From: a virus
Virus record (IMG/VR): IMGVR_UViG_3300047508_000265
Coordinates: 1-64,000 of that record
DNA length: 64,000 bases
Direction: 5' to 3' (one strand)
This document shows, in pieces, positions 16,916 through 62,773 of the stretch. The position numbers and the translations under genes were made by a program. Below the pieces are notes generated by a model that made no database searches, was not told the DNA's origin, and was given only the letters and a program-made list of their open reading frames with translations. How positions within the stretch are numbered: position 1 is the first letter of the stretch; every line of letters starts with the position of its first letter.

Positions 16916-17967
16916 ATTTCAGTTCCTAACGATACAAATGTGCTACTAGGCTTTTGATTATTATATTCGCAAGTAACCCAATCGGCAGAGCGCGCTACAT
17001 TTGCAATACGCAGTTCATCTATTATTCCGTCCCAAAAATTGTGGGTCCCAGGTTCTAAATGATTATCATCGCCAATATATAAATTAACACTAGCTATGTT
17101 TAAACTAGCATTAGGCGACACAGTGTTGTCAGACGCACCATTAACATATCCAATCAATCCGGTAGAACTGGAATAAGTAAGCGTCAGATAATACCATTGC
17201 CCCGTAACTAAAGTATGTGAGCCCGTTCCGTCATAATCTATTAGCGACGAACCCGCACGAACATTACAACGTAGTTTACCGTTACTTCTTACAAAAATTC
17301 TTTGGAAAGCGGTAAATCCAGAATCAGAGAGAGCAACGACTGCATTATAAGCGTTAGGAAAAGACGAGGCGTTCACCCATGCGCTGAGAGTGACAGAAGT
17401 ATGCGTAGCAACACTTCCGATACCCTCGTCAATATATTGAGAACTGGCATTAACAAAATTTGCGCCGCCATCAATATTACCTCCTATGGCTGTCGCACCG
17501 TGGTTCACGTTTCCTGTGTTTAATCCAACTGGGCTATTAATATCCAGCGTTGCGCCGTCTTTTAAATGAAATACTTTAATAAAGCTATTTGTCCACACAT
17601 TTGCTGGATCAGATTGATCAGTTGTAATTGTAGGATCGCCATATTTGGTATAAAAAATTGTATCACTGCTATTAGAAATGCTAACGTTTTTTACATGGGC
17701 AATTATTTCACCTGTGGCCCCGCTGTAGCGTTCCATTTCCCACTTAAGAGGTGTTGTTCCTGCAGAATCAGAAAAGAAGCCAATATCAAATCCATCGTTT
17801 CTTTTAACATGACCTCCATTAGCGATTGTTTTAAATCTAGCATCAGTAAAATTAACCAAAACGGGAAAATTACTCTGTGTGCTTGGAACTTGTGCGTGAT
17901 CTATTGTTAAAGAACTGGTATAAATTCTAGCTTTTCGGAATATGGCAAATTGCTCTTGAAGGGTCAT
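16912..17967 (-). CDS. DUF2341 + LamG virion protein (paralog of 11886..13214)
   Basis: Shares FPV.VNFT, NGGHV...[35 protein letters not shown] and WDGI.DE. Confidence 0.8.
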
Positions 17968-18833
17968 GAAGCAAAGTTTCCGTTAATCCACCAAACAGTG
18001 CTTGCAGTTTTAATTGCTGTGGCAACCGTATTCGCAGCTAATGTTCTGTTTCCTGTTCCAGATGTTCCATCTCCTCGGTTTAACGTATCTGAAGTAATAG
18101 AAATAGTTAAAACACCAGAACCAACATTAATCCATGAAATCATTGTGCCAACGGTATAAGGAACATTGGTATTACTATCAATAGTATGTGTGTGAGCGCT
18201 TCCGGAAGTATGGACAATAGTTTTTCCAGCATCAGACAACACTGTAGTATAAGTACTATTTTGATTATTTATTGCAGAAGATGACGGCCCAGTATCTCCT
18301 GTGGGACCTGTGGGACCTGTTGCTCCTGTTGCTCCTGTGGGACCTGTTGCTCCTGTTGCTCCTGTTGCTCCTGTTGCTCCTGTGGGACCTGTTGCTCCTG
18401 TTGCTCCTGTGGGACCAATAGGACCCGTAGGTCCAGTATCTCCTGTAGTTCCGGTGCCAGAAGAACCTGTCGGTCCAGTTGGGCCAGTGTCCCCTGTAGG
18501 ACCCGGAATGCCAGGAACTCCTTGAACGCCCATTAAACCTCTAGGACCAGTCGGACCTGTAGGCCCGGGAGGCCCAGTAGTTCCTGACCCTGTGGAACCT
18601 GTGGGACCTGTTGCTCCTGTGGGACCTGTTGCTCCTGTGGGGCCTGTAGGGCCTGTTGCTCCTGTAGTTCCTCCTCCCGGAGGGCCCGTTGGGCCTGTAG
18701 GACCTGTGGGACCTGTACCAGCAAATACAGATACAGTAGACTTTACACTATGATTAGATTGAAGGAGTTCTACTAATTCACTTCCGGATATTGGACCAGC
18801 ACTAGGTAACTGGTCAATCGTTTTTGTACTCAC
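17964..18833 (-). CDS. collagen-like (G-P-T/G-A-T) tail fibre 1
   Basis: [10 protein letters not shown] anchor, long Gly-X-Thr tract, beta-rich C-terminal tip ending WWINGN. Confidence 0.8.
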
Positions 18834-19765
18834 GGACTAGAAGGATATCGTTGAATCGTCCAAGCGCCTAATTGAAATTGTTGTGTAGCAGTAGCATCCG
18901 CAGAAAACATTTGAACACTGGTTGTCTGGTTTCCTGTCAAATTACTGGAACTTATATCGTTCACCGCATGCGACAAAGCAAGAATCAGCGGACCAGAAGT
19001 TCCTAAAGCTGCCGCTGTACCGACCAGAGTACGCCCAATTACCCAAGCATTAGAAATACTAGGCACGGCGAAAGTGCCCTCGATATAAATTGGAGTCCAG
19101 TTTGTGGCTGAGGCCGCAATAGTTGCCCCAAAAGTAATAGTAGCACTGAAGGCGCCAAAATTAAACTTAACTGCATAGGTTTGAGGAGAACCAGAATTGT
19201 TTAAAATACGTCCATATATTTTAAACACAACTTGATCCCCCGAAGCAAAAGAAATAATCTTGGAAACAAGAGTTGCAGGGGCGCCCGTAAGAACATTAAT
19301 CGCAATCGCCGTATTAGGAGCATCAGCGTTAAGAACATTTATACCGGAAGGACCAGTAGGGCCAATGGGGCCTGTTGCGCCTGTAGCTCCCGTCGGACCC
19401 GCAGAACCAGTAGCTCCTGTAGGACCCGTTAAACCGCGCGGACCAGTAGGACCAGTAGGACCAGTGGGGCCCCCACCAGAAGAACCAGTAGCACCTGTTG
19501 GGCCGGTTGGGCCGGTTGGGCCTGTGGTTCCTGCCCCAGTAGCGCCTGTTGCACCGGTAGCACCTGTTGCACCGGTAGCGCCTGTTGCGCCGGTAGCACC
19601 TGTTGCACCGGTAGCACCTGTTGCACCGGTAGCGCCTGTTGCGCCTTGGCCAGCAAATACAGACACAACGGATTTTACGCTAGCCCCAGACTGCAAAAGC
19701 TCTACAAGTTCGTCTCCCGTTATGGTATCCGCAGCAGGTAATTGATCTATGGTTTTCGTGCTCAT
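18830..19765 (-). CDS. collagen-like tail fibre 2
   Basis: Same [10 protein letters not shown]...ELVELLQS anchor, (GAT)n/(GPT)n tract, different C-terminal tip. Confidence 0.8.
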
Positions 19766-19908
19766 GGTAATACTAATCTATAATCTCCTTCTTCAGTTAC
19801 GCGAATGTTTTTATCTTCCGTTGCACGAAATATATTATCGCCTTTTTCCTCAACAGAAACCCCACCGCACTGTGGTCCTTCCTCTACAACACCATCTTCC
19901 TCGCTCAT
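19762..19908 (-). CDS. small fibre-associated protein (R.TE.(G/K)..R repeats)
   Basis: ATGA-coupled at both ends; [18 protein letters not shown] motif. Confidence 0.55.
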
Positions 19909-60965: not shown

Positions 60966-61104
60966 CTTATAAAATGTTGGAGCATATTTCTAAGGAACTT
61001 AAGAAATGCAAAATGCCGCCGGTGTATAACTCGAAAGGCGAACCTTGTTATGCTTTGCGGTTTTCTGGTACAAAAAGACAATATCGTAAATTGATGAAGA
61101 AGTT

Positions 61105-61776
61105 ATGCACGACTACCTAGTCTTCTGTTCCACCCGCCACGGCCAAACGAATGCCGAGCTTGGCATCTACGGCGCTGATCGGAACTTCGATCTTTGCATT
61201 CATGACTATTCGAGTTGGGGCACAGATCCACAGGAAAAGTTTAAACGATCAGAATATTGGTTTACTCGTCCAAAGGCTGAGAAGTTAGAAACGGCAGCTA
61301 TGGTGCTTCCTCATTTGCCTGTAAGTTACAAGTACTATGCTTTTTTAGACGACGATCTTACGATTACAACTGACCAGCTTAATCGTTTGTTTCTTGTTGG
61401 TGATTCCCTTGGTCTCGATCTTTATCAACCGGCATTGACAGGAAATAGTTATGGCTCGTGGAAACATTTGTTTCAATATGAGCTTCCAAATTGTCCTGCT
61501 GTTCGGGATGTAGACTTTGTTGAGATAATGATGCCTTTTATGAGCAAGGCGTTTTTAGACAAGCATATTGGAATGTTTGATTGCAACATTTCCGGTTGGG
61601 GCCTCGACCTGTATGATTGGGGCAAGGGCTATCTAGTAAATTCTATCGCCGTTGGACACTATCGTAAACCAGAAAGGCGTAATCGTATACTTCGCAACGG
61701 CCTCACACCTGCACAAGAACTTTGGATAATGACTAAGATATACAACCCAGATGACTGTAGTTTGCCGCCATGTTAA
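61105..61776 (+). CDS. DUF707-family putative glycosyltransferase
   Basis: FLDDDL; L.L.QPAL; FVEIM.P..S; GWGLD. Confidence 0.75.
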   Translation: MHDYLVFCSTRHGQTNAELGIYGADRNFDLCIHDYSSWGTDPQEKFKRSEYWFTRPKAEKLETAAMVLPHLPVSYKYYAFLDDDLTITTDQLNRLFLVGDSLGLDLYQPALTGNSYGSWKHLFQYELPNCPAVRDVDFVEIMMPFMSKAFLDKHIGMFDCNISGWGLDLYDWGKGYLVNSIAVGHYRKPERRNRILRNGLTPAQELWIMTKIYNPDDCSLPPC

Positions 61777-62006
61777 TGCCTTATCAAGACCCAGATGATT
61801 ACGTGAGTTTTTTCGACCAACATACCTGTCGTTTTCATGAAATAGCTCCTGGCGAACCTTATGCTGGCTGCACATGCAGCACAGATTGGGGACAACGAAA
61901 GGCTACGCCGGAAGAGCGAGAAGCCAATAGGAAGAGTCGTCTAGAGCGGGAAGAACGAAGAGCTAGGACTTATCGAGCAGTAGGATTTTTATGCAGTCAG
62001 CCTTAG
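61770..62006 (+). CDS. small Cys/His-containing hypothetical protein
   Basis: ORF track; lies between the two GT-like genes. Confidence 0.5.
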   Translation: MLMPYQDPDDYVSFFDQHTCRFHEIAPGEPYAGCTCSTDWGQRKATPEEREANRKSRLEREERRARTYRAVGFLCSQP

Positions 62007-62773
62007 TCGTAGCTTGGCACAATCCAAAACAGATCGCCGAGTTTAAGGAGGCGTGGAAGATTCAGTCTGGTCACCAGGTCTATTTTCAGCAGGATAAGGA
62101 CAAAGAGGGCTGTGCCGTAACGAAGAACAAAGGAATTCGTCGAGCGTATGATGACGGCGCTGAGATGATCGTTGTTTTAGATGATGACTGTTATCCTAAA
62201 GACGAACACTATACTCTGCAGAATTTGTTTGAGGATTATGAATCCGCCTTGAAGCCGCAGAAGGTTTTGATGTATTATGCCATTACTCAGCCTCGTTCTC
62301 GTGGAACGCCGTATTTAAACCGGACTATTCAAATGCCGGTTGCTGCGGCTTTGGGGTATGCTTTAAAGTTCCCAGATTTGGATGCCGCTTCTTCTTTGGT
62401 TCTCGGCAGCCAGATTGAGATTGGAATGCTGAAACAACCAATACACGGAAGGTATTTTAGTGGTTGCGGAATGAATTTCGCCTTTCGTCGTGAATGGATT
62501 GATTGTGTTCAATTTATCAACATTCCCAGATTCGACGACATTTGGATGTTTTTAATCTTCCAGAAAATCGCCTACGCGAAAGGATTTTGTTTTTCTTTGG
62601 AAGGTCCTGATGTAATTCATCAGCGTCAATCCAACATTTGGAGAAATTTACAAGACGAAGTCAAATATCTTGAGATAAATGAAACTCTTTGGCAGACGAT
62701 TCATGCTGCTCCTTCTTGCTTGTCCGCTTCGGAATTGAGGGATAAACTTTTTCTAAGTTATCCTCGAACATGA
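61991..62773 (+). CDS. RGP/UAM-like GT75 protein (putative UDP-arabinopyranose mutase)
   Basis: LDDDC, RGTPY..R, PDLDA, CGMNFAFRRE, RFDDIW and H...SN...NL..E follow the plant RGP motifs in order. Confidence 0.8.
   Translation: MQSALVVAWHNPKQIAEFKEAWKIQSGHQVYFQQDKDKEGCAVTKNKGIRRAYDDGAEMIVVLDDDCYPKDEHYTLQNLFEDYESALKPQKVLMYYAITQPRSRGTPYLNRTIQMPVAAALGYALKFPDLDAASSLVLGSQIEIGMLKQPIHGRYFSGCGMNFAFRREWIDCVQFINIPRFDDIWMFLIFQKIAYAKGFCFSLEGPDVIHQRQSNIWRNLQDEVKYLEINETLWQTIHAAPSCLSASELRDKLFLSYPRT

Follow-up and report, generated by a model that had tools for sequence, protein, structure and literature searches.

The phage genome described here is a single contig of 83,126 bp, of which bases 1-64000 (64,000 nucleotides) make up the window. 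The first ~127 bases are repeated at its end, and in IMG/VR it is classified as having direct terminal repeats and being 100% complete. It encodes its own polymerase, primase-helicase and RNR, no integrase was found in the 83 kb, and its relatives have been binned with MAGs of Verrucomicrobiota, Planctomycetota and Bacteroidota. The source is an uncultured tailed phage whose lifestyle is apparently lytic. The genome includes nine glycan enzyme genes, spread over three separate loci (Table 1) and all surrounded by replication and nucleotide-metabolism genes, among them a dNMP kinase gene. Seven of the nine had been named in the original prediction, and all seven were borne out as glycan enzymes, with a strength of support that is uneven between ORFs. 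The other two lie just beyond the window and had been missed. As had been claimed, none of the seven is predicted to have a transmembrane helix (maximum Kyte-Doolittle 19-residue mean below 1.6); by hydropathy prediction such helices are absent from all nine.

Table 1. Glycan enzyme genes and candidate acceptor genes, in order of position.
Feature	Coordinates	Strand	Basis or remarks
Collagen-like fibre protein, 289 aa	17964..18833	-	46 triplets, 33 G-x-T
Collagen-like fibre protein, 311 aa	18830..19765	-	33 triplets, 25 G-x-T
Tail-fibre protein, 1015 aa, two collagen-like tracts	22793..25840	-	62 triplets, 50 G-x-T
Scaffold-like protein, N-terminal T/G/A-rich tract	30773..32065	-	5 TGxTG motifs; acceptor role doubtful
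GT23-like (NodZ/FUT8-type) fucosyltransferase candidate, 245 aa	38312..39049	+	Family profile, Pfam on family, Foldseek
DUF5672 protein	39052..39696 (ORF from 38959)	+	Pfam PF18922, E 1e-19
GT-B glycosyltransferase, GT9-like fold, 287 aa	39693..40556	+	AF2 model and Foldseek
Probable GT-A (GT32-like) glycosyltransferase, 218 aa	40553..41209	+	ESM Atlas; weakest assignment of the set
GT2-TPR glycosyltransferase, 296 aa; candidate initiating protein O-glycosyltransferase	57031..57921	+	Pfam, PHROG, phmmer, family profile
DUF707-like GT-A-fold protein, 223 aa	61105..61776	+	Pfam DUF707 only E 0.016; Atlas feature matches to DUF707 clusters, 0.99
GT75 (RGP / UDP-arabinopyranose-mutase family) protein, 260 aa	61991..62773	+	Pfam near cut-off, family profile
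GT2-like gene	64041-64931 (genome)	-	E 5.3e-6; just beyond the window
Polysaccharide pyruvyl transferase (PF04230)	64879-65760 (genome)	-	E 5.6e-7; just beyond the window

The glycan enzymes

The four genes located between 38312 and 41209 overlap or abut one another. The product of the first has no Pfam match of its own. Nine of 52 aligned members of its family match Pfam NodZ, the family profile recovers NodZ (7.9e-13) and FUT8 (2.5e-7), and the top Foldseek match of its AF2 model (pLDDT 93.8) is FUT8 (2.6e-6), all significant matches being fucosyltransferases (FUT8, NodZ, AtFUT1, POFUT1/2). Family profile and fold match together confirm the designation FucT-like. The DUF5672 ORF opens at a TTG at 38959, and the ATG at 39052, which comes immediately after the stop codon ending the preceding gene, is likely the true start. 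The third protein also lacks a Pfam match, and the best Foldseek matches of its AF2 model (pLDDT 89.3) are the GT9 enzymes 3tov (1.5e-7), WaaC (3.7e-7) and TibC (4e-6), together with WaaF; the predicted structure agrees at the level of the fold with the GT9-like assignment. TibC is a protein O-heptosyltransferase. The third protein has 61 homologs, some of them fused with a PF13578 methyltransferase. For the fourth protein, originally described as a DxD glycosyltransferase, the ESM Atlas structural neighbours are GT32 / Caps_synth proteins at TM 0.64-0.69, a lead-level indication; Pfam gave no match, and a BLASTP comparison with a Pfam-defined GT32 protein revealed no significant similarity. 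Homologs of the FucT-like, DUF5672 and DxD proteins were not found in five of the relatives (G001-G005) or in 80 terminase loci.

Close to the end of the window, the GT75 protein scores 23.5 bits against the Pfam RGP cut-off of 23.8. Of the 159 homologs found, 120 were listed, and PF03214 is present in nearly every one of these; the family profile matches the UDP-arabinopyranose mutase 8cid at 7.2e-9. A 48%-identical homolog of the neighbouring DUF707-like protein adjoins an RGP gene in the relative G021.

The product of the gene at 57031 had been labelled GT2-TPR. It matches Pfam GT2 (E 2.6e-7), Pfam TPR only at 0.078, and PHROG 13126 (E 2.7e-20), and phmmer against the PDB matched it to GmaR (8e-5) and to a consensus TPR protein (8e-4). 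When the profile of its family (A6) was compared with solved structures, TPR proteins were matched at 1.5e-20, and GmaR, the Listeria monocytogenes flagellin O-GlcNAc transferase, SunS and ThuS, which act on glycocin peptides, at 2.7e-19, 5.6e-19 and 1.5e-12, respectively, over the whole GT domain. The Pfam GT2 match and the profile match to TPR proteins justify the label, and by profile comparison the nearest solved relatives of the family are protein/peptide glycosyltransferases. They are soluble GT-A enzymes that glycosylate side chains of proteins or peptides, but what they modify is flagellin or small bacteriocin peptides (through an S-linkage in the case of SunS) and not collagen repeats. 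GmaR is also a far longer protein that doubles as an anti-repressor.

Collagen-like fibres and gene neighbourhoods

Of the 141 Gly-X-Y triplets in the three fibre proteins, 108 have the form G-x-T, and GPT, GAT or GDT account for 103. The prediction of three Thr-rich collagen fibres therefore holds, although the statement that almost all triplets are of these three kinds was slightly overstated, the share being 73-77%. In bacterial collagens Thr is the residue most often found at Y, and the majority of these proteins are unglycosylated (PMC8968730), so that G-x-T alone is weak evidence of glycosylation. The Thr motif had also been noted in non-fibre head proteins, and it is there: TGxTG occurs five times in the scaffold-like protein, against 0.01 expected, and twice in the capsid protein. 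These motifs are poorly conserved among relatives, and a scaffold protein usually exits the particle; a role of the head proteins as acceptors is consequently unsupported.

The GT2-TPR gene is within the block of replication and nucleotide-metabolism genes, and 31 kb separate it from the nearest fibre gene. In other phages, 13 of 62 independent loci with a GT2-TPR family member have Thr-rich collagen genes nearby, versus none of 79 FucT-like and GT75 (RGP) loci used as controls (p = 1e-5). At these 13 loci the collagen runs are 0.4-3.4 kb from the family member; 79% of GT2-TPR loci have no collagen gene inside the flank examined. At one locus (L208) a set of sugar-nucleotide genes is followed by GT2-TPR and, directly downstream, by tail-fibre genes including a G-P-T collagen. 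The co-occurrence of enzymes with collagen repeats that was to be expected from the original prediction was observed for GT2-TPR but not for the FucT-like and GT75 families; GT75 homologs and G-x-T repeats were found together in only 1 of 25 records.

Among 21 larger relatives, glycosyltransferases are present in all six with G-x-T fibres versus 2-4 of the 15 without, an association that collapses to about two independent clades; 11 of those 15 wholly lack GT2, GT1 and TAGT matches. One relative (G004) has kept glycosyltransferases and has no G-x-T fibre, and another (G002) carries a GT4-like GT-B gene between collagen-like fibre genes. The distribution of individual enzymes is patchy: GT2-TPR was found in G003 and G021, RGP in G004 and G021, and the pair of second GT2-like and pyruvyl transferase genes only in G002. 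Close relatives differ in their glycosyltransferase sets, and the slot after the terminase gene is filled by different glycosyltransferases in different relatives.

Possible targets of the enzymes

GT2-TPR apart, some or all of the enzymes could glycosylate the phage DNA, adding a mono- or oligosaccharide to a hydroxylated base after replication and blocking host nucleases, with GT75 supplying a furanose donor. The location of all nine genes is in keeping with this, since phage DNA hypermodification clusters (C5-MT/5mYOX or a ThyS homolog plus TAGT-type or GT-B enzymes) likewise have several soluble glycosyltransferases resembling LPS enzymes amid replication genes. The GT75 neighbourhoods point the same way. 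In 28 of 41 phage records, homologs with 40-54% identity occur together with TAGT-family GT-A genes, and in 22 of 56 loci with ParB_N genes; they usually lie directly upstream of the terminase gene, and at one locus (L148) ParB_N, four TAGT genes and RGP are consecutive. Judged from gene content, this is a context of the DNA-hypermodification type and, together with the rarity of G-x-T repeats and the absence of collagen loci, it leaves the proposed service of the GT75 mutase to a fibre glycan unsupported. Phage glycosyltransferases resembling LPS and teichoic-acid enzymes attach hexose, HexNAc and heptose chains to 5hmC, and ParB-like and terminase genes are among their recorded neighbours (bioRxiv 10.1101/2023.12.21.572611); arabinofuranose from UDP-Araf is found on RB69 and DLP3 DNA, and a gene for a UDP-galactopyranose mutase is present in RL38J1 (PMC13326640). 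However, the genome has no match at E <= 1 to Tet_JBP, thymidylate synthase, ParB_N or C5 DNA methylase, so that base-activating enzyme and ParB are not detectable in it, and its sole TAGT match is weak (E 0.0015) and falls on the GT75 gene itself. A Tet_JBP search of the 41 GT75-bearing records, run without a positive control, likewise gave no match. No DNA glycan is known to bear pyruvyl or fucose, which also counts against DNA as the target. Pyle et al. found no base-modifying neighbour in about 65% of glycosyltransferase-bearing phage contigs. On balance we regard DNA as an unlikely target.

Remodelling of the host's envelope glycans (LPS core, capsule, exopolysaccharide or S-layer glycan) in the course of infection, by which superinfection could be blocked or progeny kept from sticking to debris, is improbable to a similar degree. 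Glycans are the normal targets of GT32 / Caps_synth-like and NodZ-like enzymes, the GT9-like protein is closest in fold to LPS heptosyltransferases, family PF04230 acts on repeat units of polysaccharide, and the variable glycosyltransferase sets of close relatives would be expected of host-specific cargo. Against this, none of the nine enzymes has a transmembrane helix, the scanned ORFs yielded no lipid-carrier-initiating transferase, flippase or polymerase, and the nearest solved relatives of GT2-TPR modify proteins or peptides rather than lipid-linked glycans. Lysogenic seroconversion is unlikely given the lack of an integrase, the phage's own replication genes and the terminal repeats. That the nine genes are unrelated cargo with several targets (for example GT2-TPR acting on the fibres, GT75 and DUF707 on another and the GT2-like and pyruvyl transferase pair on a third) would fit the three loci, the patchy distribution, which is different for each gene, and the variable post-terminase slot, but is very doubtful because nine enzymes in 83 kb far exceed what G-x-T-negative relatives carry and because the arrangement of the four-gene cassette is that expected of one transcription unit.

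We favour O-glycosylation of the three collagen-like tail fibres by GT2-TPR with extension of the glycan by some of the other enzymes, a scheme to which, taken as a whole, we give an even chance. Most likely GT2-TPR would work in the cytoplasm of the infected cell as a protein O-glycosyltransferase, the TPR domain holding the unfolded or assembling collagen-like chain while the GT-A domain places the first sugar on the Y-position Thr of the G-x-T repeats. Some of the other eight soluble enzymes (GT23-like, DUF5672, GT9-like GT-B, GT32-like GT-A, DUF707, GT75, second GT2-like and pyruvyl transferase) would then probably lengthen and cap the glycan using host nucleotide sugars. The original interpretation is supported in part; its broader form, in which all seven enzymes, in fact nine, would assemble a single multi-sugar glycan, is unsupported. 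In this scheme we infer the acceptor, the sugars and the order of action, as well as the participation at the fibres of any enzyme other than GT2-TPR.

The precedent for this model is SgtA of Clostridioides difficile, which consists of a GT-A and a TPR domain and O-GlcNAcylates Thr in the collagen repeats of the exosporium protein BclA3 (PMC7157674). As judged from its described architecture, SgtA resembles GT2-TPR in being a soluble enzyme of ~300-360 aa with an N-terminal GT-A and a C-terminal TPR domain. BclA3 and the putative substrate here are both collagen-like with Thr at Y, the sugar being on the repeat Thr in BclA3, and members of the phage family adjoin collagen genes in other phage contigs as sgtA adjoins bclA3. 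Here, unlike there, the enzyme gene is 31 kb away and the putative substrate is a phage tail fibre instead of a protein of the spore surface. Mycobacteriophages also encode glycosyltransferases that act on their own virion proteins, although in Freeman et al. 2023, as related in PMC12619734, the sites reported to be modified are at the C-termini of capsid and tail-tube subunits and not on collagen-like fibres. Giant viruses have autonomous glycosylation systems, chlorovirus capsid glycosylation included, in which many soluble viral glycosyltransferases and a virus-encoded pyruvyl transferase (L143, part of the Mimivirus virion-fibril glycosylation cluster) decorate surface fibrils (PMC10117803), and for the DUF707-like and DxD proteins the Atlas neighbours include giant-virus or algal clusters. 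Their hosts are eukaryotic, their genomes are of 300 kb to more than 1 Mb, and the chemistry of their glycans has been worked out, whereas the genome here is of 83 kb and the host is bacterial. In the part of the literature covered, no published description of this combination of enzymes and Thr-rich virion proteins was found.

The relatedness of GT2-TPR to GmaR and SunS, its SgtA-type architecture and the location of family members near collagen genes support the proposal that it is the initiating enzyme, and it probably starts O-glycosylation of the Thr-rich collagen-like fibres. As GT2-TPR is of the kind that glycosylates Thr in collagen-like proteins, this is probably a phage that coats its own collagen-like tail fibres with sugar.

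Genome organization and the sugar enzymes

The window covers bases 1-64000 of a single 83,126-bp contig, which repeats its first ~127 bases at its end and is classed in IMG/VR as having direct terminal repeats and being 100% complete. The minus strand between positions 1914 and 37145 carries a packaging and structural module that includes, besides the genes listed in the table, two LamG-like proteins and one 2019-aa protein. The plus strand from 37359 onward carries a RuvC-like gene, a cassette of four sugar-enzyme genes, and a set of replication and nucleotide genes (helicase, DUF2800 nuclease, dNMP kinase, family A polymerase, DUF5906 primase-helicase and class II RNR) between which HNH endonuclease genes are scattered. 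Three HNH genes are intermixed with glycosyltransferase and replication genes, one of them immediately 3' of the four-gene cassette, and a tRNA gene is located between the GT75 gene and the pair formed by a second GT2-like gene (GT2b) and a pyruvyl transferase gene. No tyrosine integrase was found in the genome, and the phage looks lytic.

Features of the phage genome (genome numbering)
Feature	Position	Strand	Remark
Collagen-like fibre	17964-18833	-
Collagen-like fibre	18830-19765	-
Collagen-like fibre	22793-25840	-
Capsid protein	28626-29792	-
Scaffold-like protein	30773-32065	-
Portal	32602-34740	-
Large terminase	35331-37145	-
FucT-like	38312-39049	+	four-gene cassette
DUF5672	39052-39696	+	four-gene cassette
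GT9-like	39693-40556	+	four-gene cassette
DxD protein	40553-41209	+	four-gene cassette
HNH endonuclease	41206-41697
HNH endonuclease	47903-48343
GT2-TPR	57031-57921	+	296 aa
HNH endonuclease	58573-59064
DUF707-like	61105-61776	+
GT75 (RGP family)	61991-62773	+
tRNA-Pro (TGG)	63053-63127	-
GT2b, GT2-like	64041-64931	-	18-residue His-rich insert; with the pyruvyl transferase gene, L001:1041-2760
Polysaccharide pyruvyl transferase	64879-65760	-	overlaps GT2b

The terminase found no similar sequence in the GenBank phage collection by tblastn and no match in IMG/VR when scanned as a single protein; an alignment-based scan of IMG/VR yielded more than 587 relatives, and metagenomes yielded 364 terminase homologs, the best of them 66% identical. 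The closest relatives (66% TerL identity), on JGI contigs of 27-40 kb, carry GT9-like and RGP homologs as well. Distant relatives, with 37-46% terminase identity, were binned with MAGs of Luteolibacter, Opitutae, Blastopirellula and Altibacter, which is a weak hint of the host.

All seven ORFs originally listed as glycan enzymes were confirmed as candidates, with support that is uneven from ORF to ORF. Two glycan genes absent from that list lie past the end of the window, so that the phage has nine glycan enzymes, and the claim that these proteins lack TM helices holds, by prediction, for all nine. In PHROGs, matches were limited to the GT2-TPR and GT75 proteins, NCBIfam gave sub-threshold matches only, and phmmer searches of the PDB with the single FucT-like, GT9-like, GT75 and DUF5672 proteins returned nothing useful. 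The DUF5672 protein has a Pfam match (1e-19). The FucT-like protein alone has no Pfam match; it belongs to a family of 134 members, nine of the 52 aligned members match Pfam NodZ, and the family profile matches NodZ (7.9e-13) and FUT8 (2.5e-7). The significant Foldseek matches of its AF2 model (pLDDT 93.8) are all fucosyltransferases (FUT8 2.6e-6, NodZ 2e-5). The name given to this protein is thus upheld by its family profile and by its exclusively fucosyltransferase fold matches; it resembles the GT23 enzymes (NodZ/FUT8 alpha-1,6-fucosyltransferases) in sequence and predicted fold, and by family it would use GDP-fucose and form an alpha-1,6 linkage.

For the GT9-like protein, 61 unnamed homologs were found, and Pfam and NCBIfam models gave no match above threshold; the best matches of its structural model (pLDDT 89.3) are all GT9 enzymes (a Veillonella GT9, WaaC, WaaF and the protein O-heptosyltransferase TibC), the top ones with TM-scores of just 0.44-0.54. 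For the DxD protein, the sole basis of the glycosyltransferase label is a set of ESM Atlas structural neighbours in GT32 and Caps_synth, and BLASTP showed no significant similarity to a Pfam-defined GT32 protein. The DUF707-like protein has a weak Pfam match (0.016) and is placed among DUF707 clusters by the ESM Atlas. The GT75 protein scores 23.5 bits against Pfam RGP (gathering score 23.8), and PF03214 is precomputed for it as well as for nearly all of the 120 homologs listed (159 found). Its family profile matches a solved UDP-arabinopyranose mutase (8cid, 7.2e-9). The protein therefore matches the RGP family model and may have pyranose-furanose mutase activity; this activity is putative, since the profile also matches the 'transglycosylase' entries 7yua and 7xpr at 2.6e-8.

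The GT2b and pyruvyl transferase pair is kept in the relative G002 with 43% identity. A 521-aa protein of the relative G001 (26997-28562; L089:6997-8562) looks like a GT2 domain fused to a GT9-like one, and in G002 and G003 the GT9-like domain is the C-terminal half of 443-465-aa proteins. Clusters of glycosyltransferases comparable to that of this phage exist in other phage contigs: a 62.5-kb contig (L180:5157-11479) has, consecutively, GT2, GT23-like, Nucleotid_trans (GT77-like), two GT47 exostosin-like and GT32 genes, families better known from eukaryotes and chloroviruses. This phage stands out for how many and how varied the accompanying enzymes are, and for having its GT2-TPR gene away from the fibres.

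The GT2-TPR protein and the collagen-like fibres

Fibre O-glycosylation initiated by the GT2-TPR protein is the best-supported mechanism, and we give it about an even chance of being correct. The single protein matches Pfam GT2 with an E value of 2.6e-7 and TPR_17 at just 0.078, and phmmer matched it to GmaR, the flagellin O-GlcNAc transferase of Listeria (8e-5), and to a consensus TPR protein (8e-4). A family profile was built from six members, namely the protein of this phage, those of two relatives and three from unrelated low-GC contigs. The C-terminal third of this profile (positions 177-291) matches TPR proteins at 1.5e-20, and the whole catalytic domain matches GmaR (2.7e-19), the SPbeta sublancin glycosyltransferase SunS (5.6e-19) and a ThuS-like enzyme (1.5e-12); among solved structures, then, those nearest to the family are protein- or peptide-glycosylating enzymes.

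The same layout is found in the 358-aa SgtA protein of C. difficile, which consists of a GT-A domain and TPR repeats and puts beta-O-GlcNAc on threonines of the collagen repeats of BclA3, whose gene adjoins that of SgtA (PMC7157674). As described, both proteins have an N-terminal GT-A (GT2-type) catalytic domain and C-terminal TPR repeats, a likeness at the level of layout. The collagen-like substrate with threonine at the Y position also has its counterpart, as the three fibre proteins include 141 Gly-X-Y triplets, of which 108 are G-x-T. The triplets had been described as almost all GPT, GAT or GDT; the three Thr-rich fibres are real, but these sequences account for only 103 of the 141. Among bacterial collagens, of which most are unglycosylated, threonine occurs at Y more often than any other residue (31.6% overall; PMC8968730), so G-x-T repeats are not acceptor motifs in themselves. 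The two systems differ in gene order: the SgtA gene adjoins that of its substrate, while here the stretch from the end of the nearest fibre gene (25840) to the start of the GT2-TPR gene (57031) separates the two.

An enzyme gene next to a collagen gene is, on the other hand, found for other members of the GT2-TPR family. In an unrelated, low-GC (30%) phage contig (L208:343-9859) a single plus-strand run includes genes for a sulfotransferase, an epimerase, a DegT aminotransferase and a GDP-mannose 4,6-dehydratase, then a GT2-TPR homolog, followed by a 730-aa fibre protein and a G-P-T collagen protein of 528 aa that matches Pfam Collagen. Compact as it is, this run may be an operon for glycosylating, and perhaps also sulfating, the fibre; the same arrangement begins in a second contig (L210), which ends before completing it. 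A scan of viral contigs with the GT2-TPR family gave six loci, too few for a whole-genome test of co-occurrence, and metagenome loci were used. Among the 62 loci of at least 5 kb (58 metagenomic, four from viral contigs), a Thr-rich collagen run was present 0.4-3.4 kb from the GT2-TPR gene in 13; the control families had none (GT75, 0/56 loci; FucT-like, 0/23; Fisher p = 1e-5 versus GT2-TPR). Of the 25 GT75-bearing viral records of at least 30 kb, only one, the syntenic relative G021, has G-x-T repeats. The proposed co-occurrence of glycosyltransferases with G-x-T proteins is supported for the GT2-TPR family and not for GT75.

The Thr motif noted in head proteins is real as well, with five TGxTG motifs in the scaffold-like protein (0.01 expected) and two in the capsid protein, but it is weak: other low-complexity P/T/A-rich linkers take the place of the scaffold tract in relatives, among which the capsid C-terminal motif is not conserved.

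Distribution of fibres and glycosyltransferases among relatives

Co-occurrence was also assessed in 21 larger relatives of 51.7-82.5 kb, consisting of 20 terminase relatives and G021. Runs of at least five G-x-T triplets are present in six of them, all of which have glycosyltransferases of the GT2, GT1 or GT9-like kind. The 15 relatives without such runs include two with a clear glycosyltransferase, namely G004 (one GT1-family and one GT75 gene) and G013 (a TAGT gene), and two more with weak GT2 matches. The naive Fisher p value of this association lies between 5e-4 and 4e-3 with kinship ignored, and on the terminase tree the association shrinks to about two independent clades. One clade comprises this phage, G001, G002, G003 and G021, all with both traits; in the other, G005 and G012 have both traits and G004 has glycosyltransferases without a collagen fibre. 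The distribution among relatives does not refute the idea and supports it modestly.

G005 and G012, which have G-x-T fibres and no GT2 match, were considered as a counter-example and ruled out, as both have a GT4-like GT-B gene. The ortholog of this gene in G002 sits amid collagen-like fibre genes; in G005 and G012 it occupies the slot after the terminase, the position of the four-gene cassette in this phage. This slot, between the terminase and RuvC-like genes and the helicase gene (window 37145-42105), has a glycosyltransferase cargo that varies by relative, with four genes here, a FucT-like gene in the contig L173, RGP in G004 and the GT4-like gene in G005 and G012, and is empty in most relatives. 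The distributions of the nine sugar genes among relatives are separate and patchy.

Possible targets of the sugar enzymes

Polysaccharide acceptors, and with them a possible remodelling of host-surface glycans, are suggested by the GT9-like fold and by the family of the pyruvyl transferase. A pyruvyl transferase is compatible with a virion glycan too, since there is one within the virion-fibril glycosylation cluster of Mimivirus (PMC10117803). Against host-surface remodelling, none of the nine enzymes appears membrane-bound, no lipid-carrier machinery was seen, and the phage, in which no tyrosine integrase was found, has the appearance of a lytic one. It thus differs from seroconverting prophages of the Gtr type, with their lysogeny module and their transferases or flippase embedded in the membrane.

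DNA glycosylation by the whole set was considered because of the company that the GT75 family keeps in other phages. Phage DNA hypermodification clusters are typified by TAGT enzymes and ParB homologs. TAGT-family GT-A genes are present in 28 of 41 GT75-bearing records, usually a few kb away, and ParB_N proteins in 22 of 56 GT75 loci; in one locus (L148:2189-6774) the order is ParB_N, four TAGT genes, RGP and then a terminase-like gene. This locus and 27 further IMG/VR records (L117-L157) have ParB_N, one to four TAGT genes and RGP clustered just upstream of the terminase. Such clusters may represent a furanose-donor branch of a TAGT-type, perhaps DNA-directed, glycosylation pathway, and the GT75 family is unlike the GT2-TPR family in its neighbours. 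LPS-enzyme-like phage glycosyltransferases modify 5hmC with chains of hexose, HexNAc and heptose (bioRxiv 10.1101/2023.12.21.572611), RB69 and DLP3 have arabinofuranose on 5-hydroxycytosine with UDP-Araf as the donor (PMC13326640), and phage thymine dioxygenases are activated by ParB homologs (PMC13229309). Because of these neighbours and of arabinofuranosylated phage DNA, a furanose mutase would suit DNA modification no less than virion modification.

In the whole genome of this phage, Tet_JBP, thymidylate synthase, ParB_N and C5 methylase had no match at E <= 1, so that no base-hydroxylating enzyme (TET/JBP-type 5mYOX or thymidylate-synthase homolog) was detected, of which a very divergent one could escape. 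DNA-type glycosyltransferases (TAGT/JGT-like GT-A or T4 beta-GT-like GT-B) were not found in this genome either, the only TAGT match being a weak one (E 0.0015) that falls within the GT75 gene, at 62030-62191. With no base-activating enzyme, TAGT or ParB detectable in this genome, and with relatives of the GT2-TPR protein that act on proteins, a DNA-glycosylation cluster was rejected as the leading explanation. Tet_JBP had no match in the GT75-bearing records in a search run without a positive control. A 223-aa ORF at 78615-79286 (L001:15615-16286) was considered as a C5 methyltransferase for its PPC and ENP motifs, seen by eye, and rejected, with no Pfam, PF00145 or PDB match. As GT75 is linked elsewhere to a neighbourhood of the DNA-hypermodification type, sets of phage glycosyltransferases should not be given one target by default.

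Of the virion O-glycosylation system originally proposed, initiation on the fibres by the GT2-TPR protein is therefore the part that is supported, and a single system uniting all the enzymes was not borne out. As further, inferred parts of the proposal, the other enzymes would extend the same glycan, head proteins would serve as acceptors too, and arabinofuranose and deoxyhexose would be among the sugars. It seems unlikely that this 83-kb phage has an autonomous machinery like that of giant viruses, in which the GT2-TPR initiator and up to eight more enzymes build a complex glycan, perhaps pyruvylated and with fucose and a furanose among its sugars, on fibre threonines. To our knowledge, virion glycosylation by phage-encoded enzymes has been demonstrated for mycobacteriophages only. 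There, by the account in PMC12619734 of Freeman et al. 2023, such enzymes glycosylate the C-termini of capsid and tail-tube proteins.

If an SgtA-like enzyme does O-glycosylate the fibres, phage fibres of a very common type would be sugar-coated, which would affect how they recognise hosts, how stable they are and how they are recognised by immune systems. Glyco-engineering would gain a small soluble enzyme that acts on a simple repeat acceptor, and the many orphan glycosyltransferases of environmental phages would acquire a testable role.
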